50,001 nucleotides of DNA from a virus (lineage: Duplodnaviria > Caudoviricetes): the IMG/VR virus record IMGVR_UViG_3300036845_000765, positions 1 through 50,001 of that record; one strand, 5' to 3'. Position 1 is the stretch's first letter. Every line of letters begins with the position of its first letter. The position numbers and the translations under genes were made by a program. The notes beneath the pieces are model-generated. The model saw only the letters and a list, made by a program, of their open reading frames with translations. It did no database searches and had not been told where the DNA came from. This document shows positions 6,301-47,407 of the stretch, one piece after another.

Positions 6301-6644
6301 TGGGCCTCTCGACTAGTGTTCTCTACCTCCGCGATCTGGTCCAGGCCGTTGTCCACGGTCGCGATGTCTCAGCGGGTCTCCTCGGTGCCCCGTTCCAGGA
6401 TGTCGCCAACGTGGCGAGGGACTTCGGCAAAGGGAACAAATCCTGGTCTCGCCAGAATGCTGGACGGACTGTGGGGCATATGCTAAACCTAATCGGTGAC
6501 GGAACCGGTATGGCCCCGCATACTCTCAACAACGCGGTTAAGTTCGGCATCGACCTTGTCAACCACCAAGCCCATCCCCACTCCCCAATGGAAGTCTTCC
6601 GCGGTGCTACCCGTGGGCAAACTCAACGAAAGGTTGAACGATGA
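360..6644 (+). CDS. Giant internal virion/DNA-ejection protein (2094 aa, T7 gp16-like position; polyvalent-type with HExxH zincin-like motif)
   Basis: Last and largest gene of the ejection cluster; RHEVVHW...EEAIAE motif; helical, hydrophobic C-terminal region. Confidence 0.75.
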   Translation: MSDTDYSVNDFIADNQRMAKMLTYGAMDEDPEQATRAIELGDSSGVPASAIYGNVDSFEKKYKAALQSDLIQHNPHLANYLVGDPMAARVSNDDLGNLDELTQQVNKGTGKSRLRQWLDSTSVSQTVSKSFMEGFGDEPVSPTGYQEFYQGYSRPNDVEWALSHPALSSVLSPIGRAEGLGEIGVEALSRTTNGLINLGHDALSAMFGKGFADEMAGEAQYAITRGDIATPGFGGGAKGPLGIIEQNQHLVKTISDVSHALDIAEPWSRIGEDPPVGLHPLIDKAKELQAKEDADWIDKSLSAAAKSATRERSPELFAQFLRGQVGNREIGIDPEAIAKLYGDKPPAPDDNILGWIPGLAESLEAAKATGADVTVPLADYLAKVDPDIAKELHDFIRVRDKGVTIDEAKIEAEPKTAIPDPVASIRASAGLEPIYAAAGDRKVTLSRKDYVEENARELAQDTGRDYDQMSPEDQAEIRRDANRGSYNLDMLDETGKQIGSIKLSEQKGGKQLYIQMIRAGGTASMYDPNFLGPALIRDLKRQLKSMFPNAETLTGYRVTGAREKAGEQAWMAKSALSVVKLDLGEDPQGFRDLLSPYWTQIGPESFAYTRPEWSPRETQIANAVAQEAERLAPGIDVQTVHKLLFEAAGNGVRGLFNTQTKQMFISLESKAGQVGIVRHEVVHWLRSSGLFSEGEWLTLARAAHDQNWIERYNISARYKNFDPEAQLEEAIAEGYRHWAMGEGVTKDTGVFQKIKDFFEGIYRQVKQVLGKDFTWEELFKEIDAGRVGRREGEDEGLGQQVLASSDLANDIAGPESFQSPRHAKIRLDQLLRDKAQSKKLGDDVESTDYMHYNVAIRRLREYLKQSRDGGSGRVLASAGEGEKPSRGPMAREVAPQHLPWYDKGFRGEPRGGNEAEQAAWDRGKLDASNAERQALAGPSKPVEQPSPGPAAEQPTAKSGEAGEEEPFGLYSRGKALGVTDAHMERMHDLIRERNEKDFEASQRRAEVRQRRRSNKDWKERRTVLRDEVREQMSSRPDLALDAVLTKYSVKIDPAYLSEDQRSRLPKDYLQKKNGVNPDDLAPYFGFTSGDAMVERLGMLTEERRRAGMSQRDYLNRSIDVETDRRLNQEFGDRDKHILDEAKDQALSETQLRLVHEETMQFAVKAGQEPQFTLDQTRAMVRQAFDSVPVGQIKSDKLLQNAGKLGKKIEEAGSKGDWAEAYRLSQQRNHTVIAAKMARDYEKARASLDRTAKSMGKREPPSVTAEYANWIHDMLSRVGYRIQRLPQDLAENIGRQNEKTIGDFKSAKEAEWSLGGGAALRELPIAGWILDDPAFKKPIDELTHSDFMAFKGTIDGLVKAGRDEKKIYAAGEVADRAAVMGQMMGQLGTFKMRAYKATVGAVDKFLKLPRSFFAGQTVMETLLNRWDRGDALGVFNRYITYPLAKASNYKNVLERDAADQLKALGRPKDLNKTVASPFNDHLTRTEANPDGEPYSNFTRNNVLAMLQNAGNKSNWTVLAKGFGEDPAKLWAWLEKNVTQDDIDRAQKLGGIFQHYVKLADSVYERLTGATVQKIPLEPVTFNTREGPVTMPGWYHPLIKDSRREEVWEKDDDTGIWTRRPTGKRGSVDDGDYFHASTSNGYTMKRTGATYPLELNFDMVPARLQQMIHDIAYREVLLETNKIFSSKAFRAEVLKHYGEEYRDLLEPYLHGIAGAESIPSKALAGWANLAEVFRQNVISSLIAFNPYTALKHGPTALVMSSREVGPVKFANALMHYYGKSPDLTMTNSKFAMTHSEELQRRERHWQEAIRGQLDKLGIQTNPAQAVRNFMMEKGAWLVAKSDMMSAKPTWTAAFNEAIAAGNDFGTAVQLGDRAVRRAHGSTAATNQPLFVSNKAGLQRWFTSVYGFFGTNMQRRIEIAHDLNDTYQLGRQKQWSAAAAHLPGLLADVMTYVVWPTIVEEAVTGLTTQDKKGWGQHLAAGAFLGLSTSVLYLRDLVQAVVHGRDVSAGLLGAPFQDVANVARDFGKGNKSWSRQNAGRTVGHMLNLIGDGTGMAPHTLNNAVKFGIDLVNHQAHPHSPMEVFRGATRGQTQRKVER

Positions 6645-7300
6645 GCCTAACCGAAGTAATGCCGTTACTAATCGCCGCGATGGCCGTGTTCGGTGGCGTT
6701 ACGCTGGGCTTGATGGCACTGGCTTGGCGAGCGCTGGGGATTGCTCATGATCTCGCCAAGCTGGCATTGAGTCAGGGGATCACCCCGCCACCCAAGCTCC
6801 CGGTCATTCTCAAATCCTCGTCAACCGAGGTGGTGCCACAGACCAAGCCCAGCGCTGTGCCGGTGCCTACCGCTCCAACCCCAGTGATCGACCCAGCGCT
6901 AGTCGCCGCTGTGAAGAAGTTCGAAGGGTTCTCGGCTAAGGCGTATGGGGATTTCAAGCAATACTCAATCGGGTATGGAACCAAAGCCACCGGGCCGGAT
7001 GAAACCATCACCGAGGCCGAAGCTGAAACCCGCCTGAACGAAGAACTCGCCAAGGCCGAGGCCGCTGTGGAGAGCTTCGCGCCTAATGCTCCCAAGGGCG
7101 TCAAGCAAGCCCTAACCGATCTGACCTACAATTCCGGCACTGCCTGGATGAAAGCCGGGCTTGGGCAACTCATCCAAGCTGGTGACTACACCAGTGCCAA
7201 AGAACGTATCCTGCAATACAACCATGCAGGTGGGGAGGTCAATTCTGGCCTAACCAAACGTCGGGAGGCAGAAGCTTCCTGGTTCGACAACCCTCTGTGA
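6641..7300 (+). CDS. Endolysin, GH24 phage lysozyme with N-terminal signal-anchor (SAR-like) and Pro-rich linker
   Basis: FEGFSAKAYGD...SIGYGT, ALTDLTYNSG and GLTKRREAE motifs; Ala/Gly-rich hydrophobic N-terminus. Confidence 0.9.
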   Translation: MSLTEVMPLLIAAMAVFGGVTLGLMALAWRALGIAHDLAKLALSQGITPPPKLPVILKSSSTEVVPQTKPSAVPVPTAPTPVIDPALVAAVKKFEGFSAKAYGDFKQYSIGYGTKATGPDETITEAEAETRLNEELAKAEAAVESFAPNAPKGVKQALTDLTYNSGTAWMKAGLGQLIQAGDYTSAKERILQYNHAGGEVNSGLTKRREAEASWFDNPL

Positions 7301-7314
7301 AAGGAAAGACGACT

Positions 7315-7572: not shown

Positions 7573-7597
7573 CCCAACCAAACCCGGCGAGGACTCC

Positions 7598-13554: not shown

Positions 13555-13566
13555 TCTCAGTTCTCC

Positions 13567-13598
13567 AAAAAGAAGGGTGTAGCATTCGCGCTACACCC
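13567..13598 (-). terminator. Rho-independent terminator
   Basis: 9-bp stem GGGTGTAGC/GCTACACCC followed on the minus strand by TTCTTTTT, just after the SSB-like gene. Confidence 0.8.
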
Positions 13599-13612
13599 AG
13601 GCTGGGGGAGGG

Positions 13613-14056
13613 TTAGTCTACGGCCGGCGCGGTTCGCTGGATCTTGGCGAAGACCCGGTCCGAGCCTTCTTGCTGATCATGCTTGATAAACGCCAACACC
13701 GACGCGTTCGGGGTATTGTCGATGCAGGTGGAGAGGGATGCCCCTTCCTCCAGGCATCCGCAGTGTTCGACGAACTGCTTCATCATGAACAGAGCATCCT
13801 CGGTTACCCAGAGATCATTGTTCAGGGTCTTGCCGTTGATTCCGCCTTCCAGCTTGGCGAGTTCTTCGGGGTCGACGTCTTCCAGGGGCTGGAGGACTTT
13901 GAGCTTGAAACGAAGGCCTGGAGTTTTCTTCTTGCTGGAGACGATTTGCTCAGGCAGGCCCATGACTGAGCAGAGATAGGTTCCTTCGGGGAGGAGCGGG
14001 GGAGGCTTGATTTCATCGACATTGCGGTTGAGGACGTCTTCGAAGTTGAAGGACAT
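13613..14056 (-). CDS. Putative ssDNA-binding protein (DUF669-like OB fold)
   Basis: LPEGTY N-terminal motif; follows AAA ATPase in a recombination module. Confidence 0.65.
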   Translation of the reverse strand: MSFNFEDVLNRNVDEIKPPPLLPEGTYLCSVMGLPEQIVSSKKKTPGLRFKLKVLQPLEDVDPEELAKLEGGINGKTLNNDLWVTEDALFMMKQFVEHCGCLEEGASLSTCIDNTPNASVLAFIKHDQQEGSDRVFAKIQRTAPAVD

Positions 14057-14087
14057 TGGGGAGGGTTCCTTGAGGTTGGGTTGGGTG

Positions 14088-26411: not shown

Positions 26412-26594
26412 TGCGGAATGGGATTGGGCCTATGGTTGGTGGTTGGTATCACTGCGACAGACTACCAATACTTGATCACAAAGTGCAAGATCCCGAGAGT
26501 CACAGCCCCGGCCGCCATAGCCCAGATAATCAACATCACTCCCATCAGCACAGCCTTGCCCATTCCCGCTCTCCATTGTTTCACCAACGCCTCC

Positions 26595-34178: not shown

Positions 34179-35222
34179 ATGGCAATTATCGGCTCGACCG
34201 CCCTAACGTACGCTGACTGGGCCAAACGCCTTGATGACGGCTATCGCGTAGCCTCCATCATCGAACTCCTATCCCAGACCAACGAGATCCTCGATGACAT
34301 GATGGTCGTCGAAGGCAATCTCCCCACCGGCCACAAAACAACCGTCCGGACCGGCCTTCCCCAGGCCACTTGGCGATTGCTCAACACCGGTGTCCCCAAC
34401 GCCAAGTCCACCACGGCCCAGATCGTTGACACCTGCGGGAACCTCGAAACCTACTCGGTCATCGACAAAGACATCGCGGATCTCAACGGCAACACGCCAG
34501 AGTTTCGTCTGTCAGAGTCCCGCGCCTTCCTCGAGGGTATGTCCCAGCAAGTCGCCGCTACCCTCATCTACGGCAACCAGTTCCTCAACCCAGAACGCTT
34601 CACTGGCTTCGCCCCTCGCTACTCCACCCTCACCACCGCGAACTCCCAAACCGCCAACAACGTCCTCTCCGGCGGTGGCGCGGCCTCCACCAACACCTCA
34701 GTCTGGATCATGACCTGGGGAACCGATACCAACCACGCCACCTTCCCCAAAGGCAAGCTCACCGGTCTCCAACAGCGCGACATGGGCGAATGGCCGGTCA
34801 CCGATTCCCTCGGCAACACCTACCAAGCCTACCGCGAACACTTCAAATGGGAAATCGGGTTCGTCCAGCGCGACTGGCGCTACATGGTCCGCGTTGCCAA
34901 CGTCGACGTCACCCAGCTCACCGGCGTCTCCGCGGCCAACCTGATCAACCTGCTCATCCGCGGCCTCTACCGCCTGCCCACCGCGCCAGTCTCAGCTACC
35001 ACGATCCAAACCTCCGACTCCCCAATGGTTCGGGCCGATATGGGTCGAACGGTGATCTATTGCAACCGCATTCTGAGGACGTATTTGGACCTCCAGGCAA
35101 TGAATAAGACTAACGTGCTTTTACGCCTGGAGGAATTTAACGGTCGGCCTATTACAACTTTCCGGGGAGTTCCTGTAAGAACCGTAGACGCTATCTTGAG
35201 CAACGAGGCAACGGTATCATGA
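34179..35222 (+). CDS. Major capsid protein (BPP-1 Bbp17/epsilon15 gp7-like)
   Basis: LTYADWAKR, IIELLSQTNEIL, RTGLP..TWR, FRGVPVR..DAI. Confidence 0.95.
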   Translation: MAIIGSTALTYADWAKRLDDGYRVASIIELLSQTNEILDDMMVVEGNLPTGHKTTVRTGLPQATWRLLNTGVPNAKSTTAQIVDTCGNLETYSVIDKDIADLNGNTPEFRLSESRAFLEGMSQQVAATLIYGNQFLNPERFTGFAPRYSTLTTANSQTANNVLSGGGAASTNTSVWIMTWGTDTNHATFPKGKLTGLQQRDMGEWPVTDSLGNTYQAYREHFKWEIGFVQRDWRYMVRVANVDVTQLTGVSAANLINLLIRGLYRLPTAPVSATTIQTSDSPMVRADMGRTVIYCNRILRTYLDLQAMNKTNVLLRLEEFNGRPITTFRGVPVRTVDAILSNEATVS

Positions 35223-35719
35223 CTCCAGATCTATTAACACAGGATTTAGTCAAAAGATTCCTTCGCTACGATCCTGAGACAGGCGATTGGACTTGGATTG
35301 AGCAGATAAACTCTCGTGTTGAGGTTGGAGATGCTGCTGGAACCATCAGTGTGCATGGTTATCGTATCATCACATTCTTTGGTTACAAGTATCGCTCAGC
35401 AAGGCTAGCTTTCCTATACATGACAGGAAGATGGCCTGACAAGGAAGTTGATCACGAGAATCGTTGCAAGACAGATGACCGCTGGGTTAATCTACGAGAT
35501 GTGACTCGTTCAGATAACCAAATCAATCGGGACTTGCAAGGAAACAACACATCTGGCGAGCGAGGTATTCACTGGGACACTAACAGGAACAAATGGTTTG
35601 CACAGGTCAAAAGAGACAATGTCACTTTCTCTGTAGGCCGATACGATACCATGGAAGAAGCTGTAAGTGCCAGAGATGCCTTCATTGAAACCTACGATTC
35701 GAAAAGGAATGTATCATGA
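35219..35719 (+). CDS. HNH homing endonuclease with AP2-like C-terminal domain
   Basis: YDPETG, VDHENRCKTDDRWVNLR, NTSGERGIHW, GRYDTMEEA; AT-rich relative to flanks. Confidence 0.92.
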   Translation: MTPDLLTQDLVKRFLRYDPETGDWTWIEQINSRVEVGDAAGTISVHGYRIITFFGYKYRSARLAFLYMTGRWPDKEVDHENRCKTDDRWVNLRDVTRSDNQINRDLQGNNTSGERGIHWDTNRNKWFAQVKRDNVTFSVGRYDTMEEAVSARDAFIETYDSKRNVS

Positions 35720-36273
35720 TCCTCGATGGCTACTTAATGTTCACCAACTTCATCGGCGGAGGCACCGGCACTGGCGACTCCCCAACCACTGGTACCCAGG
35801 TCTCCACCAACCAGCTCGACCTCGGCATCATCGGTCTCCCACTCTCGGCCTCTGGCGGCGGTGCTCGCGATATCGGTATCGGCGACGACCCAGCGATGAA
35901 AATCGCAGTGATCGTCACCACCACCTTCACCGGCGGGACCTCGCTCCAGGTCAACATCCAGGGAGCTCCCGACAACGGTTCCGGTGCCCCAGGCTCCTAC
36001 ACCACCATGCTCTCCGGCCCAGTGGTAGTCGAAGCCAACCTGCTCGGCGCGACCTCGACCAGCTTCGCCGGCACCCGCGTCCTCGATGTCGACATGCCTA
36101 GACCCGCTCCGGCCCAGGCACTCCCACGCTTCATCCAACTCCAATACATCACCGTCGGCACCCACACCGCCGGCGCAGTCAAAGGCTTCCTAGTCCTTGA
36201 CCGCAACGACATCCCACTCGGCACCACCGCTGCCCTTTCCGGCTATCCCGCCGGTATCACCATCGCGAACTGA
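35716..36273 (+). CDS. Capsid cement/decoration protein (Bbp16-like)
   Basis: MILD..L.F, STN..DLG, RDIG.G, RFIQLQY..VGTHTAG; follows capsid gene. Confidence 0.8.
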   Translation: MILDGYLMFTNFIGGGTGTGDSPTTGTQVSTNQLDLGIIGLPLSASGGGARDIGIGDDPAMKIAVIVTTTFTGGTSLQVNIQGAPDNGSGAPGSYTTMLSGPVVVEANLLGATSTSFAGTRVLDVDMPRPAPAQALPRFIQLQYITVGTHTAGAVKGFLVLDRNDIPLGTTAALSGYPAGITIAN

Positions 36274-36283
36274 GGAGGGCACA

Positions 36284-36925
36284 ATGAAGCGTATCCTCCT
36301 CGCAACCGGTCTGTTCCTGGGGTTGGCTCTACCAGCCTCGGCCCAGATCAACCTAGTCCCCCAAATCGGCCTAACCACCGGCTACCTGCCCCACACCACA
36401 TATTCCTCAGCCTTCTTCGGCCTTGTCCCCCCAGCATCCGCAACCGATATGGTCTGCATTGCTGGGTCAACCTCCAAAACCGTCCGGGTACAACGAATCG
36501 TCATCGGCGGCACTGCCGCCACTCTCGTCGGCCTACCCATCCAAGTAGTCCGCCGGGCCTCCCTTGACACCGGCGGTACCATTGGCACAACCACTGCCAA
36601 CCCAGGTATCACCACCCAAATCGCCAAGCGCGACACCACAACCGGTGCCGCGACCGCAACCTTGGTCTCCTACACCGCAGTCCCAACCATCAACGATACC
36701 GCGCCGACCTACCTCGACTCAAGCCTGCTCCTACTCAACACCACAGCAGCAGCGACCAACCCACTAATGACCATCTTTGACTGGTCGCGCGACATCGAAA
36801 ACCAACTACAAGTCCCTTCGATCCAACCGGCCGCCACAGTCGTTCAGCAAATCTGTGTCAACTTCGGTGCGGTCTCGATCACCACCGGTGCCCTGAATGG
36901 TCAAATTACCTGGACAGAGGAATAA
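36284..36925 (+). CDS. Secreted beta-rich protein 1 (signal peptide ...PASA|Q, 2 Cys)
   Basis: GAGGAGG RBS; MKRILLATGLFLGLALPASAQ. Confidence 0.8.
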   Translation: MKRILLATGLFLGLALPASAQINLVPQIGLTTGYLPHTTYSSAFFGLVPPASATDMVCIAGSTSKTVRVQRIVIGGTAATLVGLPIQVVRRASLDTGGTIGTTTANPGITTQIAKRDTTTGAATATLVSYTAVPTINDTAPTYLDSSLLLLNTTAAATNPLMTIFDWSRDIENQLQVPSIQPAATVVQQICVNFGAVSITTGALNGQITWTEE

Positions 36926-36928
36926 CCA

Positions 36929-37369
36929 ATGAAACGCCTAGTCATCAACGCAGCCCTGATCCTTGGTTTGGCCGGAGGCCTTGCCTTTGCTCAGACCATC
37001 AACTCGGCACTACAGGTATCTCAAGACGGTCGAGGGATCTTCGGGGTTGACACTAACAACAACCTGTACATCCAGTCCAACCGACACTTGTTGGCTACTT
37101 CCAACGTCTCCCCTGCCCCAGTCCTAACCTCCTGTGGTACCTCCCCAACTATTACCGGTTCGGACTTTAGCTTCAAGCTAGTGACCGGTTCGGCAGCGAC
37201 CACCTGTACCATTACCTTTGGACAGGCATTCGTGACCGCTCCCCAATGCTTCCTTCAAGCAAACGGCGGTGCAACCCAACCAACCTACACAACCTCAACC
37301 ACAGCGCTCACAGTAACCGTGGACATCGCTTCCACGACCTACTCTGGTCTCTGCATGAGCATATCGTAA
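36929..37369 (+). CDS. Secreted beta-rich protein 2 (signal peptide ...LAFA|Q, 4 Cys; fibre-tip/lectin-like C-terminus)
   Basis: MKRLVINAALILGLAGGLAFAQ; CTITFGQAFVTAPQC. Confidence 0.8.
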   Translation: MKRLVINAALILGLAGGLAFAQTINSALQVSQDGRGIFGVDTNNNLYIQSNRHLLATSNVSPAPVLTSCGTSPTITGSDFSFKLVTGSAATTCTITFGQAFVTAPQCFLQANGGATQPTYTTSTTALTVTVDIASTTYSGLCMSIS

Positions 37370-37379
37370 GGAACCTCCA

Positions 37380-38600
37380 ATGAAACTTCCCGCACTCGCG
37401 CTAGCCGCACTCCTCGCTCTCAGCGCGAGTGCGTTCGCCCAAGGTGTCGACTCCACCCTCCAAACCCCAGCCATCTACCCTGGCATCGACGGAGGTTCCC
37501 AGTTCGTCCGGCTCGAGCCCACCCAGATCTTCTGGGACGACTACGGCGCGACCCTGGACACCACCAATCGCTGGACCACCCCAACCACCGGAGGCGGGGG
37601 TAACGCTACCGCCGCTACCAACTCCGGTGGCTCGTCTGTCCTAGGTTCCGGCACCACCGCCTCCGGCTGGTCCATCCTCCAGTCCCAAACCACCTTCGCC
37701 GGGCGCAACCCGGGATACATCACCTTCCAGGAACAAAACAACATCGAGTTCCCGGTCATCACCGGAGCCTACCGCTTCTGGGGATTCGCGACCATCCCGG
37801 GCTCGCCAACCGTAGCCGCCCCACTCACCGACGCGGTTGGCTTTGCCGTCCACTCCAACGGCCATCTCTTTGCGGAAACCTGGGCTGCGGGATCCCTAGC
37901 CCTAGCCATTGACCTCTCCATCCCCGCCACCGGCTATCAACTCTGCCAGTGCATCGGCCAGCCCCCCGATTCCGGAGTCCACAAATACCAAATCAACTTC
38001 CGGGGAGACAACATCCTATGGTGGGTGGACGGCCGACTAGTCTACCGCACCCTCTCCGGCGCGCCCGGCCCAGTAGTCAACACCCTCCCAGTCGCCCACC
38101 TCGCGGTAGCCGGCCTATCCAACATCTCCGCTTCCGCAACCATCACCCTGAACGGTACAACCATCGGCGACTCCTCCCGCAACGCAGTCCAGATCTCCGA
38201 CGGTACCTTCCCCTGGCGCAAGGTCGTTGTGGATGCCAATGGATCACTCCAGACCACAAAGCCGTTCACCCAAATCACTGGCAACGCAGCCGGATCCACA
38301 GCAGCCGTGGTCGGCACCCTAGCCGCAGCCACGGGCAAGCTAACCTACATCTGCGGCTTCAACGTTTCAGCCATTGGCGGCACCGCCTCCGTCTGCCCTG
38401 TCACCGTTGCCGGTACCACAGGCTCGTCTCAGGTCTACCAGTGCGCAGCCAACACCGCCGCCGGTGCAGTTATTGTACCAACCAACGTGTTCACTCCATG
38501 CATCCCGTCCTCCGCAGTCAACACCGCGATCACTATAACCACCACTGCAGACGCCACTGCCACCGCGGTTGACGTCAACTCCTGGGGCTACCAACAGTGA
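37380..38600 (+). CDS. Secreted protein 3 (signal peptide ...SAFA|Q, 6 Cys; ConA/GH16-like jelly-roll)
   Basis: MKLPALALAALLALSASAFAQ; HKYQINFRGDNILWWVDG. Confidence 0.8.
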   Translation: MKLPALALAALLALSASAFAQGVDSTLQTPAIYPGIDGGSQFVRLEPTQIFWDDYGATLDTTNRWTTPTTGGGGNATAATNSGGSSVLGSGTTASGWSILQSQTTFAGRNPGYITFQEQNNIEFPVITGAYRFWGFATIPGSPTVAAPLTDAVGFAVHSNGHLFAETWAAGSLALAIDLSIPATGYQLCQCIGQPPDSGVHKYQINFRGDNILWWVDGRLVYRTLSGAPGPVVNTLPVAHLAVAGLSNISASATITLNGTTIGDSSRNAVQISDGTFPWRKVVVDANGSLQTTKPFTQITGNAAGSTAAVVGTLAAATGKLTYICGFNVSAIGGTASVCPVTVAGTTGSSQVYQCAANTAAGAVIVPTNVFTPCIPSSAVNTAITITTTADATATAVDVNSWGYQQ

Positions 38601-39445
38601 GACGCCTTCTCTTAGCCCTACCCACCCTCCTATCGCTGAGCAGCCCCTCCCATGCCCAGCTATTCCAATGCGCGCCTGGAATCTGTCCCTGGGCTATCTT
38701 CACCGGCTTTGCCTCTGCCATCGCTACCCCAACCCAAACCCTCGATGGCACTGCCACCGGCACCAGCCATGCCTCAACAACCGTTACATCCGCCGGCCTA
38801 ACCACCGCCGGCACAAACGATATCCTCGTCGCCTATGTCTTCAACAACCGAACTGCGGCCCAGGCCAGTGCCACGTCCGTATCCGGCATCACCGATTCTA
38901 GCACCCTAACCTGGGCCCGTCGAGGCTCAGCCTGTTCCTTCCAATCAGGCGCCGCTGGCACTCCGTTCATCACCGCAGAAATATGGTGGGCCTTAGCCCC
39001 AACCGCGCAAGCCTCAAACGTCCTCACCATAACCTTCTCCGCAGTAACCGACAACGCCATCGTCATCGTCTCCGGCGTAACCGGAAGCAAAACCGCAACC
39101 CCATTCGACACCAACGCATCCTTACCCAAATGCGTCACTTCCAGCGCCACCACCGCGCCAACCGCAACCGCGGTCTCCACAACCTGCAACCACACCTTCA
39201 TGCTCGCCGGGACCACCTCAGCCAACACCGCTTCCGACCCAGGAACCCAAACCATCGGCAACTCCCCAGCGATGTTCACAGCAATCAGCCTCAACAACCT
39301 CGCCGCAGCTGGGATCAACTTCCTTCGCGGGGCCAACGAATACCTAGCCAACTCCTCAGCCCAATCCTCGGTCAGTCCAGGCTTCTCCACATCCTGGGCC
39401 GGTTGGGCCATCCTCGTCGATGCACTTCAAGCAACCACCTGCTAA
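38597..39445 (+). CDS. Secreted beta-rich protein 4 (signal peptide ...PSHA|Q, 6 Cys)
   Basis: MRRLLLALPTLLSLSSPSHAQ; Thr/Ala/Ser-rich. Confidence 0.78.
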   Translation: MRRLLLALPTLLSLSSPSHAQLFQCAPGICPWAIFTGFASAIATPTQTLDGTATGTSHASTTVTSAGLTTAGTNDILVAYVFNNRTAAQASATSVSGITDSSTLTWARRGSACSFQSGAAGTPFITAEIWWALAPTAQASNVLTITFSAVTDNAIVIVSGVTGSKTATPFDTNASLPKCVTSSATTAPTATAVSTTCNHTFMLAGTTSANTASDPGTQTIGNSPAMFTAISLNNLAAAGINFLRGANEYLANSSAQSSVSPGFSTSWAGWAILVDALQATTC

Positions 39446-39465
39446 CCAGAAAGGAACTCCCTCCC

Positions 39466-40176
39466 ATGGCCCGTTGGAAACTTACCGAGCCCCACTACCT
39501 TAACGTCCCAGGAACCAAATGGGAACAAACCATAACCGATCGCGCCACCGGCAAACAGATCCGCAAGATCTACAACGTCCCAACCCATTTCCACCCAGAT
39601 GTGGATGCCGACTGCAACCGCCGCGATGGCTTCGATCAGTTCATCATCGTCTGTCACGAAGGCAAAGGCCACCCCGATGGCAAGGACATTGTCTTCGTTG
39701 GCGACCCAACACCGGGAATGCTCCCCATCGACGACGAAGCCCGCGAGCTCTCATCCAAGTTCGCGTGGAAACCAACCCAGGGAACCGACGATATCTCACA
39801 AAGCAACAGCTTCTCTTCCCAGCTTCTCGGCGGTCTCCTCGACCAAATGTCCGAACTCCAAACCAAAGTCGTCGCAGTCCAAAGCCCAGGCATGGACAAG
39901 TTCATGGAAACCATGGCTGCGATGATGCTTCAGCAAACCCAGATCCTCGCCGCGATTGCCGGGAAGCAGGCTGTGGTCGAGCCCCCGGCCGAGCAAAAAG
40001 CTGAACAGCAAATGGTTGAAGAGCTCGATCTCGAACCGGTCATCGACGAAGAGCCTCCCTTGGACGATGCTCCCATAACCAAGCGCGAGATCGACCAAGC
40101 CTCCAAGGCCGCGGCTGCCAAGGACAAGGCTTCCGTGGAACGTGCCATGGAACGTGTCTCCTCCAGGCGAGTCTAA
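39466..40176 (+). CDS. Hypothetical cytoplasmic protein in the structural operon
   Basis: AAGGA RBS; MARWKLTEPHYL. Confidence 0.75.
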   Translation: MARWKLTEPHYLNVPGTKWEQTITDRATGKQIRKIYNVPTHFHPDVDADCNRRDGFDQFIIVCHEGKGHPDGKDIVFVGDPTPGMLPIDDEARELSSKFAWKPTQGTDDISQSNSFSSQLLGGLLDQMSELQTKVVAVQSPGMDKFMETMAAMMLQQTQILAAIAGKQAVVEPPAEQKAEQQMVEELDLEPVIDEEPPLDDAPITKREIDQASKAAAAKDKASVERAMERVSSRRV

Positions 40177-40179
40177 CTC

Positions 40180-40605
40180 ATGCCCAGCCAGCTCGACTTG
40201 GACCAAGGCGGTACCGTTCGCCAAACCCAGCTGGTCAACCTAGGACCCTCCGTTGGCTGGGTCCTAGCTCCCTACGCATGGTACTGGGCAATAACCACAG
40301 CCGGTACCACCAATATCCTCCGAGGAACCTCTGTGGTCACAATCAATGTCAACGGAAATGTCAACGTTCAACTACCATCCGCCAAGCAAAACCCAGCCGG
40401 CCCACAAGCCGTCCCTGGATCCTTCATTGGCGCGCCAGTTACCATTCTAGACCTTGGAGGCTTCGCACCTGGGGCAGTCTATACCATCCTCCCATTCGGT
40501 GCCGAACTCATCGATGGCCTAGCCTCAATCGTGATCTCTTCCCAATACGGTCTCTATCAGCTCCAACCCAACCTCATCTCCGGTGGATGGAATCTTCGAC
40601 AATGA
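40180..40605 (+). CDS. Small fibre/baseplate-like beta protein without signal peptide
   Basis: VTINVNGNVNVQLPSA...VTILD...TILPFGAELIDG pattern resembling fibre-attachment domains. Confidence 0.55.
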   Translation: MPSQLDLDQGGTVRQTQLVNLGPSVGWVLAPYAWYWAITTAGTTNILRGTSVVTINVNGNVNVQLPSAKQNPAGPQAVPGSFIGAPVTILDLGGFAPGAVYTILPFGAELIDGLASIVISSQYGLYQLQPNLISGGWNLRQ

Positions 40606-41939
40606 GAAAGCTCATCCTAGCTCTGGTCATCGCGCTGTTCCCGACCCTGGCGATGGCCCAATGCAACGGCGTCTTCGCTCCACATACCGCCTGTGGCAAC
40701 GGCACCAACAACCCAGCTATCCCAGGCCAAGTGGTTATCACCGCTCTCGGTGCCAATACCTTTGCCAACATCGCAGCACTCCGGGCCAACACTCAGGCAT
40801 TCCCAACTGTCTATGTCCAAGGCTACACGACAGTCGCTGATGGTGGGGAAGGTGTATTCAACTACGTCGCTTCCGACACAACCACCACAGACAACAACTG
40901 CACAATCTTCGTTGATGCCTCAGGCCATCGCTACTACCGGCCACTTCAATTAGATCTATCCGTCAAGTGGTGTGGCGCTAAAGGTAATAGCTCAACCGAT
41001 GACACGACAGCAATTCAGGGTGCTATAAACACTGCCAAAGCCTACACCAACGGAGCTTTGTGCGTTATCTTCCCGCCAGGGAACTATGTCATAAGCTCGC
41101 TAAACGCGACTCACTGGACCGGTGGCTGCATGCGGGGTGCTCCTGGGTCGCAGGGTTCTGTCATCTATGCGGCTAATCAAGTATCGCCCGCACCCATCTT
41201 GGATATAACGTCTTCTCCCGGCACGTACTTCGCCAATCTTCTATTCTTCGGAACGACGGCCGGGGGTGCAGCCCCGGCCGTGTTTCCCAATGTAGGTGTA
41301 CTCATTGCTGCCGGACCTGGCTTATCTGACACCGATCTTATCCGTTTCGATTTCGTGCAGTTCGCTGGGTTTTTCAGCACAGCGGCCTGCTACGTCTATT
41401 CGGTCTCGGACCTCCGGTTCGATTCAGTCAACTGTGTCAACGACAATACGTCCGTCGGCTATGGATTTGTTGCTGGAGGGGTAAATGTCTTTTCGGTGAC
41501 GTCTCCGTATACCACAATCGGAACTGGCACAGGAGTGTCTGGTGATCTTACTTGGTATGGTGGATCCGGGGGTATTGGCGAACTTGCACCTAGTCAATCA
41601 ACCATTCTCCTCGTCGGGGTACAAGGCTATCGGTTCCGCGATGGCGTGATTGGCGCCGGTGCTACATCACATTTCATCCAAATCCAAGGTACGTGTAGCT
41701 CGTGCACATTTGAGTCTATCGAGCTTAACACTACTTCAGGTACTCTTCCAACCGATCTATTCTTCTTCAGCGGTGCAACCATCACTGGTATGTTCATTGC
41801 CAATCTACAATCCGGAGGACAATATTCTGGAAACATGTTGAACGGTGGCAGTTCGACAATAACCGGCGGGGCCATCGTCGGCATGGTTCCTGCTTCCATC
41901 ACTGGGCCGTTCGCGGCTAGTTTCAGCCATCTGCCGTAA
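40602..41939 (+). CDS. Tailspike-like pectate-lyase-3/beta-helix protein with signal peptide (...LAMA|Q, 10 Cys)
   Basis: FANIAALR, GYTTVADGGEGVF, SVKWCGAKGNSSTDDTTAIQGAI, VIFPPGNY; ATGA overlap at 40602. Confidence 0.85.
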   Translation: MRKLILALVIALFPTLAMAQCNGVFAPHTACGNGTNNPAIPGQVVITALGANTFANIAALRANTQAFPTVYVQGYTTVADGGEGVFNYVASDTTTTDNNCTIFVDASGHRYYRPLQLDLSVKWCGAKGNSSTDDTTAIQGAINTAKAYTNGALCVIFPPGNYVISSLNATHWTGGCMRGAPGSQGSVIYAANQVSPAPILDITSSPGTYFANLLFFGTTAGGAAPAVFPNVGVLIAAGPGLSDTDLIRFDFVQFAGFFSTAACYVYSVSDLRFDSVNCVNDNTSVGYGFVAGGVNVFSVTSPYTTIGTGTGVSGDLTWYGGSGGIGELAPSQSTILLVGVQGYRFRDGVIGAGATSHFIQIQGTCSSCTFESIELNTTSGTLPTDLFFFSGATITGMFIANLQSGGQYSGNMLNGGSSTITGGAIVGMVPASITGPFAASFSHLP

Positions 41940-41949: not shown

Positions 41950-43355
41950 ATGACCGACTCCCCAACCGACAACGACCGTCTCGATCGCATCGCGCGCGAA
42001 CTCAAAGACATCCGGGTCATGATGACCAAGGTCATCTTCTACATGACCGAAGCAGAAGCCGAAGTCTCTGAGAAGATGCGTCGGTTCATCATGTACTTCC
42101 ACGACATCCATGACATCCGCAACCTCTATCACGAAGGCGGCCAAGAAGCTCCCGACTGGGTCCGTATGGAACTCCAACGCTGTGACGATCGCTTTCGCCA
42201 ACTGGTCCGCGAAGCCCACACAGACGGCGGGGTGTTCGAAAAGGTCCGCCGCGAAATGGCTGCGGATGAAGAGAACCGCTGGGACCACACTCGCCAACTC
42301 CACGCTCCACCAAAGAAGGAACCATCCCAATGAAACAAGGACGCGTTACCACCACCGGCAATGACTCCAAAGTCGAACCATCCCCACACGCCAAGAACCC
42401 AGGCTATGTCTCCTACCTAGGCAACAAACTCGGCAACCACGCAACCGACTCCGGAGACTTCGCGCCGAACTTCACTCCGGAGACCTCGGGGCGGGGGTAT
42501 AAGGCTCCGGGGATCGGAGCGAGTTCACACAAATCAGGCAGCCAAGGGAAACACTAGCCATGATCTACACCGACGAAATCGCTACCCTACTCCACATCCA
42601 CGACAAAGCCTTCGCGCTGGGCACCCCAACACTGAACATCGCCAACGCCGCGATGGCTAGGCTTAGGCAGATCAATGATCAGATCAAGGTGGACGCCTTC
42701 GAGCCTCCGAAGCTTTCCACCCCTGTTGCTGAGCCTGAACCGGTCGAGCCCAAGAAGGAACCAGAGCTAGTCATCATCCCGGAGCCGGAACCAACCGTCC
42801 ACGAAGACGAACCCCAAACCCACGTAGAGGAAACCCACGACCATGACTGACATTCTTTCCCAATACGGTCCCGGCACCAGCCAGCCCCAGCGACCAGTCT
42901 CCAAGTGCGGAGGCGTGCTTCCGGGTGACACCAAGGACGTGCGGAACTACTCCCCACCGATGGGTCCCAAAGGCATCACTCAGTCCCAATCCCCTGGGCT
43001 CCATGGATCCAATGCTGGCAACACCAACGGCCCGGACAATGGTGGGTCACACGGTGGATCTCCTGGATTGGGCGGAACCAATCACGGGTGCTGTGGCTCC
43101 CAAGGCAAATACTAATCATAGGAGAGTGAAATGACGATTCGGTGTAAGATGAATCTCGAGAATGTGATCGCACAGCAGTGGGGTGGGGTGAAAGCCATCT
43201 ATCGTTGTACATACGACTCAAAGGTTGCTGAAGATGTGAGCTTTCAAAAAGCCACACCATCTGGCTTTGCTGAGTTCCAAGTCGACAATCCAAAAGCCAT
43301 CGAGCAAATGGTTATTGGCAAAAGCTACTACGTCGACTTTACCCCTGCTGACTAA
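41950..43355 (+). other. Five small genes (41950-42333, 42330-42557, 42560-42850, 42843-43115, 43131-43355), two of them Gly/Ser-rich and disordered
   Basis: Coupled ORFs; the last has an FQKATPSG...VDNP motif. Confidence 0.65.
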
Positions 43356-43370: not shown

Positions 43371-44510
43371 ATGGCTGACCAAATCTCAATCTACAACCGT
43401 GCCCTCGCCAGCTTCGGCGCGCGCACGACTGTTCAGGCATCGGAGATTACCTCGCCAGTCTCCAACGAAGCCATCCAAGCCAACCTCATCTACATCCCCT
43501 ATCTCCGTCGCCTCCTCCGCATGGCCCCTTGGCAATGTGCCTTCAACGCGGCCCAGCTAACCTACATCACCTCCGTCTACGGAACTCCCGAGAACGTCAC
43601 CGCGGCGCAGACCATCTGGGCCAAGGGCCAGCCCATGCCGCCCTATGCCTATGAATACCAATACCCAGCGGACTGCGTCATGGCCCGCTGGGTCACTCCC
43701 CAGACCGCCACCGGGTTCGCCTCAGGCATCCCAATCACCACAGCCGTCACCGGGGGAGCTCCAACCTTCTGGCAAGGCCCACCGGTGAAGTTCACAACCG
43801 GTGTGGATCAGTTCTTCAACGTGACCGGTGTAACTGTCCCCGTTGGAGGGGGCGGGTATGCGGTTGGGGACCTTGTGACTTTGGCCCTAGTCCCCAACAC
43901 CTCCATCCTCACCAACCAACTCTCCACCTTCCCAGTCGGCTCTCCCCAAGGCGCTGCACCAGTTGTCACCGTCACATCCATCCAAGGCCCCGGTCCCACC
44001 GGCCCGATCTCCACAGTCGCCCCATTCTCCATCCTCCCAACCGAGGACACTCCATTCACCGGATCGTTGTTCTACCAATACGCTACCCTCCCAGTTCCAC
44101 AAGGCTCCTCAACCGGCGGCGGAACCGGAGCGTCCTTCAACCTCGTCTACGGCGGACCTTCCGACCAGCGCGTCATCCTCTGTAACCAAGAATTCGCAAT
44201 CCTCAACTACGTCAAACTTGTCCTCGACCCCAACGCCTGGGATGATTCCTTCCAAGAAGCTTTCGTCCTCATCCTCGGTGGCGCCCTCTGCAAGGCCCTA
44301 ACCGGCGACACCAAGCGCGCTAACCTCGCCATCGCCCAGGCTAACGCGATGATAATGGAAGCTCGAGGCAATGATGGGAATGAAGGCTTGCGAGTCAACG
44401 ACGTCACCCCAGACTGGTTAAGAACTAGAGGAATTGATTATGTAGAAGACTACAGTGGTCCCTACAATACGGGTTTTAATTATGGGGCTATCTGGCCAGG
44501 ATTCACATGA
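43371..44510 (+). CDS. Tail adaptor (tubular protein A, T7 gp11-like) with internal beta-domain insertion
   Basis: IYNRAL, PWQCA, YEYQYPADC, WDDSFQEAF..ALTGD. Confidence 0.85.
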   Translation: MADQISIYNRALASFGARTTVQASEITSPVSNEAIQANLIYIPYLRRLLRMAPWQCAFNAAQLTYITSVYGTPENVTAAQTIWAKGQPMPPYAYEYQYPADCVMARWVTPQTATGFASGIPITTAVTGGAPTFWQGPPVKFTTGVDQFFNVTGVTVPVGGGGYAVGDLVTLALVPNTSILTNQLSTFPVGSPQGAAPVVTVTSIQGPGPTGPISTVAPFSILPTEDTPFTGSLFYQYATLPVPQGSSTGGGTGASFNLVYGGPSDQRVILCNQEFAILNYVKLVLDPNAWDDSFQEAFVLILGGALCKALTGDTKRANLAIAQANAMIMEARGNDGNEGLRVNDVTPDWLRTRGIDYVEDYSGPYNTGFNYGAIWPGFT

Positions 44511-47407
44511 GCAAGCCAGTCATCCAAACCTCCTTCAACGCTGGCGAATGGGCCCCGGCCCTGAACGCTCGTGTCGATCTTGCCAAGTACCATAGTGGAG
44601 CTGCTCTCCTCCGCAACTTCTTCGTGGACTACCGCGGAGGCGCCACCACCCGCCCAGGGACCAAATACATCGCCTCAGTCATCAACCCCGGCTCAGCATT
44701 CCCGGCTCGGCTGATCCCGTTCCAGGCATCGTCCAGTATCGCCTATGCCCTGGAGTTCGGCCAGAATTACATTGGGTTCTATTTCAACGGCGCCCCGGTT
44801 GTGGAGAACGCAACTACCATCAACACAATCTCCAATGCCAACCCTGGGGTGGTCAGTGACACTGCCCATGGGTATTCCACCCTTGACAGGGTACTCATCA
44901 CCGGCGTCGGCGGGATGACCCAAGTCAATGGGCAGGTATACAGAATAACCGTAATTGACGTCAACCGCTACACACTCAAAGACATCTTCGGCAATGTTGT
45001 TGACACGACCAGCTTTGGCACTTACACTTCCGGAGGTACCGCTCAGCGGGTCTATATCATCTCGTCCCCATACCTATCCAGCGAAGTATTTCAGATCAAA
45101 TATACCCAGAACGTAAGCACTCTCATCCTAACCCACCCAAACCATCCTCCGTACGTCCTGACCCTAATCACCGCGACCAACTGGACCTTGGCCGCTATTG
45201 TCTTCGGCTCAACCGCGCCAGTACCAAGCCCGAGCGCCACCTCCACCCTCGGTGCTGGATCGGTCAACTACTCCTACTGCGTCACCGCCGTCGACGTAAC
45301 CGGCCAAGAAAGCGCACCTGGATTCGGTTCGGCCACGCTAGCGGGTCTGCTAGATCTCAGAACCACTCCCGGGACCAACACAATCTCCTGGATAGCCACA
45401 GCCAACACAGCCAGCTACAATGTTTACAAAGCAGAACTTAGGTATGGCACCCCAGTTCCCAGCGGTGCCCAGTTTGGATTCATAGGCAATTGCACAGGCG
45501 TGTCATTTATCGATAGCAACATCGCGCCAGACTTTGCCACAACCCCTCCTGTGGTTCAAAACCCATTCTCCGGATCCGGAGTCCAGAATGTAACCGTAAA
45601 CTTCTCAGGCAATAACTACCCGGCGGTACCATCTGTCACATTCACCGCTGCACCAGCCGGTGGATCCACCGCTACCGGCTTTGCCGTGATGACCGGGATT
45701 GCCTTCTCAATCGCCTCGGCCGGATCCTTCTACATCGTTGGCGATGTTATAAACTTCGCCCAGGGTGTTGTTGGGCAGGTTGCTTCTGCTACCCCTATAA
45801 TACCCGGAGGTGGGGGTTCGCCCGGATCCGGAGGGAACGTAACCGGCATTACCATCATAAACTCCGGTGCGGTGATTGGTCCTGGGGTAGCGTTGACCAA
45901 CCCACTAGGGCAGGTCACGACCACCAGTGCTAGGGGGACCGGGTTTATTATGAACGCAAACTGGGCTGTGATCTCGGTATCGCTAACCTCAGCCGGGGCG
46001 GGGTATCTAGTAGCCCCAACTATCACATTCAGCGGAAGCTTCGGTGCCGTGGCCACAGCTACGCTCGGTGGCGCTTCCCAGGGTAGTGGGATCGCGGTAG
46101 GGAACTCCACAGTCGCGGGATACTTCCAACAGCGTTTGGTCCTCGCTGGGCCGGTTAGCAATCCCCAGCAATTCAACATGTCCCAGCCTGGACAATACTA
46201 CAATTTCAACATCAGCAACCCTCCCCAGGCTGATGACGCTATCTCTGGAACCCTGGTCTCTGGGCAGTTAAACACAATCAAATCCATGATCGCTATGCCA
46301 ACAGGCCTGATCGTGTTTAGCGATCGCCAAGCTTGGCTGATCAACGGAGGGTTCAACGCTGCGCCGGTGTCAGCATTGGCCACTACCGCGAACTCCCAAG
46401 CCTACAATGGCTCATCCGATCTCCAGCCGATAGTGGCTAACTATGATATCTTGTACGTCCAAGCCAAGGGTTCGGTTGTCCGGGATCTGACCTATAACTT
46501 CTACACCAACATCTTCACGGGTAGCGACATCTCAGTCCTGTCCAGCCATCTATTCTACGGCTACAAAATCGTCCAATGGGCCTGGGCCGAGGAGCCATTC
46601 CGCCTTGTCTGGGCTGTCCGCAGCGATGGTGCCCTGCTATCCCTGACCTTTCTAAAAGAACAAGAAATGCTTGCTTGGTCCCACCATGATACCGGGTTTG
46701 GAACATTCCGGTCGATTTGTACCATCACCGAGTCAACGCCCACCGGCACCGTTGATGCTATTTATGTCATCGTCCAGCGTCAGATAAACGGCCAAGCGAT
46801 GAACTATGTGGAAAGGCTTGTGGAATTACCACAGCCTACCAGTTACAGATTCTCTTGGCAAGTCGATGCTGGGATACAGTATAGCGGAGCCGCAGCCTCA
46901 ACCTTCTCCGGGGCACAGCATCTAGCCGGCATGCCCGTCACCGGATTGGCTGATGGTGTTGTTATCAATTTCACCATGCCAACTTCCGGGACGTTTGTGT
47001 TTGGCAACGGCGGGACCGCTGGCCTAACCAACATCGCACCTTCGTCGGTGGTCACGGTTGGTCTAGCCTTCACTCCCCAGATCCAAACCCTGGCCCTGGA
47101 CCTTGGCGAACCAACCGTTCAGGGCAAGCGCAAGAAGGTTTCTGCAGTGACCGTCCGGGTTGCCAATGCTCTAGGCTTGTACGCAGGCAAAACCCTAACC
47201 ACTACCCAGCCAATAAAGGATCTCATCATCGGCCAAACCGGAACCATGTCCAACGCGCCGGTTACCGATCTCCAAACCACAGATTGCCGACTCTACATCG
47301 ACCCAGCCTGGGACGTGTTTGGGCAATATTTCATCACCCAACCAAACCCATACCCGGCGTCCGTGCTCGGCGTGATCCCAGAGATTGAAATTGGGGATGA
47401 CCCATGA
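44507..47407 (+). CDS. Tail nozzle (tubular protein B, T7 gp12-like) with inserted domains
   Basis: QTSFNAGEWAP, RPGT, YFQQRLVLAG, AWSHHD, VGLAF. Confidence 0.9.
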   Translation: MSKPVIQTSFNAGEWAPALNARVDLAKYHSGAALLRNFFVDYRGGATTRPGTKYIASVINPGSAFPARLIPFQASSSIAYALEFGQNYIGFYFNGAPVVENATTINTISNANPGVVSDTAHGYSTLDRVLITGVGGMTQVNGQVYRITVIDVNRYTLKDIFGNVVDTTSFGTYTSGGTAQRVYIISSPYLSSEVFQIKYTQNVSTLILTHPNHPPYVLTLITATNWTLAAIVFGSTAPVPSPSATSTLGAGSVNYSYCVTAVDVTGQESAPGFGSATLAGLLDLRTTPGTNTISWIATANTASYNVYKAELRYGTPVPSGAQFGFIGNCTGVSFIDSNIAPDFATTPPVVQNPFSGSGVQNVTVNFSGNNYPAVPSVTFTAAPAGGSTATGFAVMTGIAFSIASAGSFYIVGDVINFAQGVVGQVASATPIIPGGGGSPGSGGNVTGITIINSGAVIGPGVALTNPLGQVTTTSARGTGFIMNANWAVISVSLTSAGAGYLVAPTITFSGSFGAVATATLGGASQGSGIAVGNSTVAGYFQQRLVLAGPVSNPQQFNMSQPGQYYNFNISNPPQADDAISGTLVSGQLNTIKSMIAMPTGLIVFSDRQAWLINGGFNAAPVSALATTANSQAYNGSSDLQPIVANYDILYVQAKGSVVRDLTYNFYTNIFTGSDISVLSSHLFYGYKIVQWAWAEEPFRLVWAVRSDGALLSLTFLKEQEMLAWSHHDTGFGTFRSICTITESTPTGTVDAIYVIVQRQINGQAMNYVERLVELPQPTSYRFSWQVDAGIQYSGAAASTFSGAQHLAGMPVTGLADGVVINFTMPTSGTFVFGNGGTAGLTNIAPSSVVTVGLAFTPQIQTLALDLGEPTVQGKRKKVSAVTVRVANALGLYAGKTLTTTQPIKDLIIGQTGTMSNAPVTDLQTTDCRLYIDPAWDVFGQYFITQPNPYPASVLGVIPEIEIGDDP

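Follow-up and report, generated by a model that had tools for sequence, protein, structure and literature searches.

Known Systems and the Locus under Study

Since the assembly of tailed phages is taught as a purely cytoplasmic process, receptor-binding-type proteins travelling through Sec are unexpected in these viruses. To our knowledge, the only textbook case of virion parts delivered through Sec is that of the Ff filamentous phages, whose coat proteins pIII and pVIII carry Sec leaders, with periplasmic disulfides in pIII, but those particles are extruded at the membrane. Here we deal with five genes with predicted Sec leaders in an HK97-fold tailed phage with portal and terminase, which are named SP1, SP2, SP3, SP4 and SP5 for the genes starting at 36284, 36929, 37380, 38597 and 40602, respectively. 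The window analysed is a DNA stretch of 50,001 nt, positions 1 to 50,001 of the IMG/VR record IMGVR_UViG_3300036845_000765 (Caudoviricetes), which is a complete genome (CheckV, 100%). Judging from its genes, the phage is a BPP-1/epsilon15-like podovirus with a genome of 49.8 kb, and its capsid protein is about 50% identical to those of epsilon15/phiV10-type phages.

A first likeness is found with the podovirus spikes and fibres with exchangeable bodies (P22, SP6/K1-5 and CBA120-type). SP5 shares with them a beta-helix signature (PF12708, as well as tailspike and exopolysaccharide (EPS)-depolymerase PHROGs) and a short conserved N-terminal module followed by a body that is swapped among sister phages. 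However, the podovirus spikes known to us lack a leader and their folding is cytoplasmic, whereas the N-terminal module of SP5 consists of a Sec leader plus a 25-aa peptide with two Cys, and not of a folded virion-binding domain.

A second likeness comes from the residue that follows the cleavage site (position +1). In Bacteroidetes, a Gln in this place is described as a rule, and the residue is cyclised to pyroglutamate (PMC5837995). Another report describes five such Q-rule leader proteins, of no known function, in Porphyromonas gingivalis phages, and reads them as host-surface modifiers (PMC10367356). The window is alike in its Gln at +1, but no Bacteroidota host is indicated for it, the related contigs being binned elsewhere. 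Moreover, unlike the P. gingivalis phage genes, the leader-bearing open reading frames (ORFs) form here a conserved block, with 1-7 of them per locus by our heuristic, made of receptor-binding-type modules within a head-tail operon.

Morons and exclusion proteins, such as lom and bor of lambda or Llp of T5, are also leader proteins encoded among late or structural genes. Morons are single genes of patchy distribution, each flanked by a promoter and a terminator that belong to it, whereas the genes of the window leave no room for such signals, leader genes occur in 25 out of 25 loci of the clade, and SP1 is a core gene found in more than 1,200 clusters. A last likeness concerns the secreted carbohydrate-active proteins of soil viruses described as auxiliary metabolic genes, which are reported to include lectin/glucanase- and pectate-lyase-fold proteins, a minority of them with leaders (PMC13507307; PMC6172770); for the carbohydrate-active enzymes of soil prophages, leaders were reported there in 5% (3,261 of 64,678) (PMC13507307). 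The proteins of the window differ from these in that they are encoded in a virion morphogenesis operon and resemble receptor-binding modules instead of metabolic enzymes.

Five Leader-Bearing Proteins in One Operon

The original prediction described five leaders with A-x-A/Q-type sites, where the slash marks the predicted cleavage, and the ORFs, leaders and +1 Gln residues were recovered as described by a rule scan of our own. The leaders are MKRILLATGLFLGLALPASA/Q for SP1 (36284..36925, + strand; residues 1-20, ASA/Q), MKRLVINAALILGLAGGLAFA/Q for SP2 (36929..37369, + strand; AFA/Q), MKLPALALAALLALSASAFA/Q for SP3 (37380..38600, + strand; AFA/Q), (GTG)MRRLLLALPTLLSLSSPSHA/Q for SP4 (38597..39445, + strand; SHA/Q) and MRKLILALVIALFPTLAMA/Q for SP5 (40602..41939, + strand; AMA/Q). 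In each of them a basic n-region leads into a hydrophobic core without charges, and Gln comes right after a small-x-small site; the h-regions are short, of about 10-14 residues. None looks like a lipoprotein leader, as the +1 residue is Gln in the five cases and the Cys of SP5 stands at +2, behind the Gln. None is of the Tat type either, because an RR-x-F-L-K-type motif is missing in the five leaders; SP4 has an RR pair without the Tat consensus.

The scan, which is a crude heuristic based on the n-, h- and c-regions plus the -3/-1 positions and not SignalP, was applied to the 1,414 possible starts in ORFs 60 aa or longer, over the six frames. It cannot separate a cleaved leader from an anchor, and some leaders escape it for want of a basic residue. 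By this rule heuristic the features of the five leaders are strong: 41 rows were flagged, with the five genes in the top 14 (SP5 at ranks 1-2, SP3 at 4, SP2 at 5, SP1 at 6 and SP4 at 14), and the remaining flagged rows correspond to alternative-frame or internal ORFs. The genes g39466 and g40180, between SP4 and SP5, were not flagged, in agreement with their previous description as lacking a signal peptide. Shine-Dalgarno-like motifs precede SP1 (GAGGAGG), SP2 (GAGGAA) and SP3 (AAGGAA), while the starts of SP4 and SP5 overlap the stop codon of the gene before. No plausible true start was found downstream of the annotated ones, since none of the five genes has an in-frame start with a Shine-Dalgarno-like motif within 45 codons, and leader-less forms are not expected.

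The position of the genes between cement and tail adaptor also stood up to family searches. Upstream, the cement gene (35716..36273, + strand) matches Pfam Bbp16 (PF21190, E 7.9e-7, 29.8 bits for a cut-off of 27.1) and phrog_427. Downstream, the block is bounded by the tail adaptor (43371-44510, + strand; phrog_394, E 8e-31) and the nozzle (44507-47407, + strand; phrog_376, E 1.8e-151), the latter related to Bbp13 of BPP-1. Between cement and g41950 there are nine genes, both ends included, with gaps of -4 to 20 nt, and a site scan gave 3 promoter-like and 10 terminator-like sites, when 4.1 and 11.3, respectively, are expected from shuffled sequences. As the gaps are too small for promoters of their own and neither type of site exceeds chance, the five leader genes are taken as a part of the morphogenesis operon and not as morons.

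Conservation of the Leaders

Whether homologues keep the leaders had been set beforehand as a test of the prediction, and they do. A clade set of 25 related loci (L004-L027 and L030) with 80-90% capsid identity was gathered from IMG/VR and from species genomes. In all 25, a leader-bearing ORF starts -10 to +15 nt from the cement stop, and the heuristic finds 1-7 leader ORFs between cement and either g41950 or the adaptor. SP1 is 64-72% identical in 17 related loci, where lower values were obtained for cement (47-56%), adaptor (45-51%) and nozzle (44-49%). When 11 SP1 proteins were aligned, it was seen that the letters of the leader drift while the n-h-c form is kept, with A18, Q21, C58 and C191 as invariant residues, a behaviour that corresponds to a signal peptide and not to a structural element.

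A wider view was obtained from a profile search with SP1, where 8,000 candidates were scored. At least 1,211 clusters of SP1 (90% identity, E up to 0.001) were found among these candidates. Within the matches listed, the leader is present in 117 of 119 relatives, the other two being N-terminally cut, exactly two Cys occur in 116 of the 117 leader-bearing proteins, and the WTEE end is kept in 105 of the 119. By its distribution, SP1 is a core gene of the clade. The leader block is missing in a more distant relative, L039, whose capsid protein is 67% identical. Because they are kept across relatives, the five leaders are not a product of chance, and leaders and conservation together make it a well-supported prediction that SP1-SP5 are genuine Sec/signal-peptidase-I substrates, which would be cleaved and exported. 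The leader pattern is real, conserved and broad.

Covariation of Leaders and Cysteine Pairs

The Cys numbers originally given for the mature parts (2 in SP1, 4 in SP2, 6 in SP3, 6 in SP4 and 10 in SP5) came out the same when recounted. A comparative view of their meaning was offered by the relatives of SP3, of which 204 were found. These proteins join a jelly-roll domain to varied C-terminal parts, often the conserved C-terminal module (CT) that in SP3 covers residues 296-406 (38265-38597, + strand) and has the end ...NSWGYQQ. Identities of 50-77% are kept by CT even among highly dissimilar proteins. In a hand-picked set of 68 rows, made of SP3 and 67 of the 119 relatives listed, the mature Cys count is even (2-10) in all 46 leader-bearing rows. 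In the 22 rows where no leader was recognised, the count ranges over 0-10 and is odd in 10 rows, even in 10 and zero in 2; at least two of them (P0015 and P0062) do bear a leader that a stricter script had missed. The Cys pair of the CT module follows a similar trend: among 44 leader-bearing rows with residues in both columns, 37 keep both Cys, 3 keep one and 4 neither, while in 10 leader-less rows the figures are 2, 1 and 7. Both residues are replaced together in the leader-less proteins P0020, P0021, P0040 and P0071, three of which belong to the 68-row set.

A full-library search with CT alone yielded 838 representative clusters at 50% identity, and the module occupies the extreme C-terminus in nearly all of the best 150. 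Among the new representatives, 120 of 133 have a leader, and the Cys number is even in 117 of those 120. In the loci of the clade, leader proteins with an even number of Cys (two or more) outnumber those with an odd number by 49 to 7, as compared to 70 and 94 for the other ORFs (Fisher p 3e-9, a value that derives from crude ORF calling and from proteins that are related and not independent).

That leader and Cys pairs go together speaks strongly, on comparative grounds, for an oxidising compartment as the place where the forms with a leader fold, and the disulfides advanced by the original prediction gain strong comparative support from it. Taken with the conservation of the leaders, this link makes export into the periplasm, followed by oxidation there, very probable.

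The Mature Proteins and Their Neighbours

The mature parts had been described as receptor-binding-type modules, which holds well for SP3 and SP5 and remains a suggestion for SP1 and SP2. The model of SP3 (AlphaFold2, AF2; pLDDT 86.5) contains a ConA-like lectin/GH16-fold domain at about residues 45-270, followed by the CT module, with 6 Cys in the mature protein. With VIA, residues 45-270 matched a GH16 lichenase (3i4i) with a Z of 18.4 and a root-mean-square deviation of 2.8 over 185 residues, in agreement with Foldseek (E 2e-7). The domain is also similar to ERGIC-53-type lectins (Z 15-16), the CBM2 of the Dit of phage J-1 (Z 13.8) and the receptor-binding domain of TM4 gp23 (Z 13.3). A receptor-binding nature also agrees with its leader-less relatives, which have long fibre-like N-termini and are found on contigs of up to 343 kb that are taken to be prophages; one of them follows baseplate-type genes in L002. 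The catalytic motif of GH16 enzymes is E-x-D-x(x)-E. By eye, no conserved acidic triad of this type was seen in SP3, which shows ..QEQNNIEF.. where its homologues have ..QWQVNVEF.. or ..QFQVNWEF.., and for this reason the domain is tentatively read as a lectin. With regard to C-terminal sorting domains (T9SS CTD, PEP-CTERM), no Pfam or NCBIfam match was obtained for the CT region of P0003 and P0086, and some proteins with the CT module (P0086, P0097, P0100, P0109 and P0122) carry a precomputed Pfam label, PF27453.1.

SP5 combines the conserved 25-aa Cys-loop peptide (QCNGVF..T.CGN) with a pectate-lyase-type beta-helix and 10 Cys. Its residues 120-166 match PF12708 with 35.5 bits (cut-off 27), over profile positions 3-48 of 213 only, and the protein is also related to the EPS depolymerase phrog_4250 (E 1.4e-12) and to tailspike PHROGs.

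In the case of SP1, the model (pLDDT 63.7) is a single jelly roll, and the protein has the invariant C58 and C191 and a C-terminus in ...WTEE. Its best structural matches are generic ones (small capsid proteins, turret, cement protein, XepA, Ena pili and TNF/C1q), so that the values against the KHP40 cement (Z 7.5) and the HFTV1 turret (Z 7.9) stand amid many generic jelly rolls of like Z. An identity of 30% links residues 39-213 with the C-terminal domain of a protein of the L003 fibre cluster, where both Cys are replaced. A kinship between SP1 and SP3 was tried and discarded, as the profile comparison aligned only the leaders, with a probability of 16%. SP2 is a small beta domain with 4 Cys, of which the N-terminal two thirds are kept in the clade (residues 1-110, 40-49% identity). 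Only viral clusters are near it in the Atlas, where its model is similar to the C-terminal portion of pectate-lyase proteins of 933 aa, which we take only as a lead. SP4, with its GTG start overlapping the SP3 stop, has a Thr/Ala-rich mature part with 6 Cys. Three homologues were found in the protein collection, one with a leader and two without it that have 4 Cys each, and none in viral contigs.

Three leader-less genes complete the block. The product of g39466 (39466..40176, + strand) has an acidic C-terminal half and occurs in every related locus with 34-50% identity, and no Pfam, PHROG, PDB or cultured-phage match was found for it. The small g40180 (40180..40605, + strand) always precedes spikes with an 'A/QCNGVF..C' N-terminus and gave no PDB sequence match. 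The variable block is closed by g41950 (41950..42333, + strand), a conserved helical protein with 48-70% identity in sister loci and no family match. In the sister phages, leader proteins match tail-fibre PHROGs and a Gly-rich domain. Leader-bearing Gly-rich proteins also adjoin fibre-type genes in unrelated phages or prophages (L002, 4162-5148; L005, 8071-8979, Pfam Gly_rich_2; L023, 12511-13434).

Virion Appendages or a Free Set of Secreted Proteins

Where these proteins would act once exported is a question with more than one answer. The one that we tentatively prefer is that SP1-SP5 are the outer appendages of the particle, which would join and attach to the virion at lysis. In such a scheme, a single compact operon would give rise, late in infection, both to the head and tail proteins and to the products of the five genes. 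SP1-SP5 would then be exported to the periplasm, where the leader would be cut before the Gln and the paired Cys oxidised, to give a group of putative glycan-binding or glycan-cutting modules: the SP1 jelly roll, a tip-like SP2, the ConA-like lectin plus CT of SP3, the SP4 domain and the beta-helix depolymerase of SP5. Heads and tails built in the cytoplasm would take up these appendages once inner membrane and wall are breached at lysis, and the docking of SP5 would involve the conserved Cys-loop peptide at its N-terminus and g40180, the small protein that co-varies with it. Our preference derives from four facts, namely that these are the sole receptor-binding-type modules of the genome, their place in the operon, the core status of SP1 and the pattern of the spike N-terminus.

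Regarding the first of them, no fibre or spike candidate other than SP1-SP5 was found in the complete genome. As to the spikes, SP5 and its counterparts in five sister loci have in common the leader and some 25 mature residues (QCNGVF..T.CGN.....P; residues 1-35/49), and the remainder is unrelated. Another type of spike starts with Q..CPTRP.GD.SN.CASTAFV. Whereas a g40180-like gene is always found before spikes of the SP5 type, a different gene of 117-131 aa precedes the other type, a co-variation that makes g40180 a candidate adaptor or chaperone, although linkage alone could produce it. For the original suggestion that g39466 or g40180 could be virion-side adaptors, this co-variation of the small gene is the only support, and an indirect one. 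The peptide of the SP5 type is invariant at 14 positions, whereas g40180 is only 46-53% identical. A supposed likeness of CPTRPxGDxSNxCASTAFV to the Pfam phage tail-fibre repeat was dropped, since 10 sister proteins gave no such match with E up to 0.05.

Several points weigh against virion attachment. Among the literature surveyed, mostly abstracts, no precedent was found for a tailed-phage virion protein with a cleaved Sec leader. Mature proteins of the SP3 type start about 25 residues before the lectin domain and do not have the N-terminal extensions of 60-300 residues seen in the fibre-like relatives without a leader. Identities of 50-77% in the CT module connect phages with head genes that are either unrelated by BLAST or distant (23% for the major capsid protein, MCP, of L057), and since the module is common to such phages, a shared host ligand fits better than a lineage-specific docking site on the virion. 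CT also occurs as a short protein composed only of leader and module, and the locus L027 has SP1, g39466 and the small gene while the spike is missing. Leader detection was done with our own heuristic and not with SignalP. In addition, virion disulfides are possible without a periplasmic route, as the tail tube of a siphovirus is reported to have inter-ring disulfides (PMC13576161).

Some of these data would fit a rival reading in which the proteins are exported but never join a virion, forming a soluble periplasmic set of lectins and depolymerases that is released at lysis. We consider this alternative possible, if somewhat doubtful. The mature proteins show no recognisable virion-anchor domain, the module shared by phages with different head genes and found alone behind a leader would suit a free set, and secreted phage proteins encoded in or near structural modules have precedents in the P. 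gingivalis phages and soil prophages mentioned above. The lom and bor proteins of lambda are a similar case. With the same degree of doubt, a free set could loosen the exopolysaccharide of the producer, act on the neighbouring cells to condition them, or hide or remove the receptors that the dying cell and its remains display, and the disulfides would give stability outside the cell. Nevertheless, a complete genome would then be left without any receptor-binding protein. Nor does a free set explain why SP1 is a core gene more conserved than cement, adaptor and nozzle, the fixed synteny within a head-to-tail operon with translationally coupled starts, or the combination of conserved N-terminus and swapped body that is typical of virion spikes. 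Besides, lysis frees cytoplasmic enzymes anyway, and export would be superfluous for mere release.

A different location would result if the N-termini were uncleaved signal anchors that tether the proteins to the inner membrane, with periplasmic domains acting in superinfection exclusion, lysis control or envelope remodelling. The endolysin of the phage likewise has a hydrophobic N-terminal segment, and the heuristic is blind to the difference between leader and anchor. We regard this option as unlikely, given that short h-regions (about 10-14 residues), a conserved small-x-small site and an invariant Gln make up the pattern of a cleaved leader, that leader-less homologues work in other phages, and that five to seven lectin, depolymerase or jelly-roll proteins per genome are unlike the exclusion proteins known to us.

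Finally, it is very improbable that there is no export at all and that the hydrophobic N-termini are structural parts of fibres whose Cys oxidise after release, since, even if tailed phages assemble in the cytoplasm and post-release disulfides are reported in virions (PMC13576161), Sec or SRP of any bacterium would engage an N-terminus made of a basic n-region, a highly hydrophobic h-region and an AXA site, the leader sequence drifts with its form kept, and the loss of Cys pairs coincides exactly with that of the leader.

Extended to the whole uncultured soil phage group, the preference for virion appendages becomes a more hesitant proposal, in which all receptor-binding and decoration proteins may pass through Sec, be oxidised in the periplasm, possibly acquire a pyroglutamate cap and be captured at lysis, in a two-compartment morphogenesis. 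No cultured relatives of SP1, SP3, g39466 and g40180 were found in 50,697 deposited phage records, which also gave no DNA match to the late region.

Leader Proteins beyond the Clade and the Gln at +1

Loci of other phage types that bear CT also contain runs of leader proteins with paired Cys. In L057, an 86.9-kb contig with a capsid protein 23% identical, six consecutive leader proteins (9139-14530; 4, 4, 4, 6, 10 and 8 Cys) lie between the head genes and a nozzle-like gene. Five leader proteins are found in L068 (5536-13127), three in L056 and two in L064/L065, where they adjoin the terminase gene. In the lineage of L055/L070, the lectin plus CT architecture occurs with neither leader nor Cys pair, and no leader genes are nearby. 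As the same architecture exists there without a leader, the function of the modules is not tied to the periplasm, which fits modules that act outside the cell, either on the particle or free.

With respect to the pyroglutamate cap that had also been proposed, Gln is indeed found at +1 in the five window proteins, but a general tendency of signal peptides is enough to account for it and no phage-specific explanation is needed. The residue occurs at +1 in 38 of 59 clade proteins and in 60 of 120 CT representatives. When the same heuristic was applied to chromosomal samples of three metagenome-assembled genomes (MAGs), chosen among those with related contigs, Gln was found in 18 of 57 leaders from the Terriglobia MAG G001 (400 kb, L073-L092), in 4 of 15 from the Comamonadaceae MAG G003 (200 kb, L094-L103) and in 1 of 29 from a third MAG; an Escherichia coli control stretch was too small, with 4 leader-like matches. 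Gln is therefore the commonest +1 residue in two of the three sampled MAGs, and it does not separate candidate hosts. These frequencies, together with the Bacteroidetes rule, make the +1 Gln look like an adaptation to the signal peptidase substrates of the host and not a phage invention, and a Q-rule-like bias may exist outside Bacteroidota. A plant-type glutaminyl cyclase (PF05096) was detected in one of two acidobacterial MAGs, the Terracidiphilus MAG G002.

No SP1 was found in 185,579 species genomes. Relatives of the MCP with 81-85% identity are carried by contigs of 1.9-48 kb that binning assigned to Terriglobia, Terracidiphilus, a Comamonadaceae genus, Telmatospirillum and a 'Scandinavium' MAG, and with relatives in five different genera MAG binning is no reliable guide to the host.

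The Phage Genome

The stretch occurs in only one sequencing run, of soil-metagenome DNA, which may itself be the origin of the window, and no RNA run was listed for it. A direct terminal repeat of 182 nt (1-182 and 49820-50001, 98% identical) sets the unit genome at 49,819 bp, and because of this repeat the ORF starting at 48380 is not cut at the window end but runs on in frame into 1-363, for a protein of about 600 aa. The late genes on the + strand include terminase (28596), portal (31009), scaffold (33307) and major capsid protein (34179). An HNH/AP2-type endonuclease gene (35219-35719, + strand) is inserted between the capsid and cement genes, and since in related loci it is placed elsewhere or missing, it has the appearance of a mobile homing gene. 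Beyond the nozzle are encoded internal virion proteins, an LPD22 protein of 2,094 aa and the endolysin.

The endolysin (6641..7300, + strand) has PF00959 at residues 92-211 and a hydrophobic segment at its N-terminus (MSLTEVMPLLIAAMAVFGGVTLGLMALAW), which together with a Pro-rich linker is indicative of a SAR or membrane-tethered type. As this N-terminus is hydrophobic too, host membrane targeting would be needed by the phage in more than one way. The region that follows (7297-8053) encodes a 91-aa hydrophobic protein and then one of 151 aa that has a coiled coil and a single membrane helix at its N-terminus, the latter protein being a spanin-like candidate.

Primase, DNA polymerase and exonuclease genes are on the - strand. 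The polymerase is found as two ORFs (10388-11914 and 12107-13372, - strand) that match successive stretches of the phrog_17 profile (positions 556-783 and 809-1232) and are about 190 nt apart. Neither an integrase nor a tRNA was found in the window genome, and from the former the phage looks like a virulent one. No repeat pair of the diversity-generating kind was seen, since the only repeats in the window are the terminal one and a 41-nt motif. This motif has three copies in the early region (17162-17202, 22624-22664 and 26414-26454), with the end GGTTGGTATCACTG, which may be phage-specific promoters or regulatory sites.

Biological Significance

If the only receptor-binding-type proteins of these phages use Sec and acquire disulfides, then either virion assembly takes place in two compartments or host recognition occurs without a conventional fibre, by means of a secreted set. 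The covariation of leaders and Cys pairs amounts to a natural experiment on how proteins adapt between reducing and oxidising folding compartments, and the disulfide-stabilised receptor-binding modules would be possible robust glycan binders. There is also a consequence for annotation, because leader-bearing genes with lectin, glucanase or pectate-lyase folds in soil viromes are easily miscounted as carbon-cycling auxiliary metabolic genes. With at least 1,211 clusters for SP1 and 838 for CT, the group of phages concerned is large and widespread.

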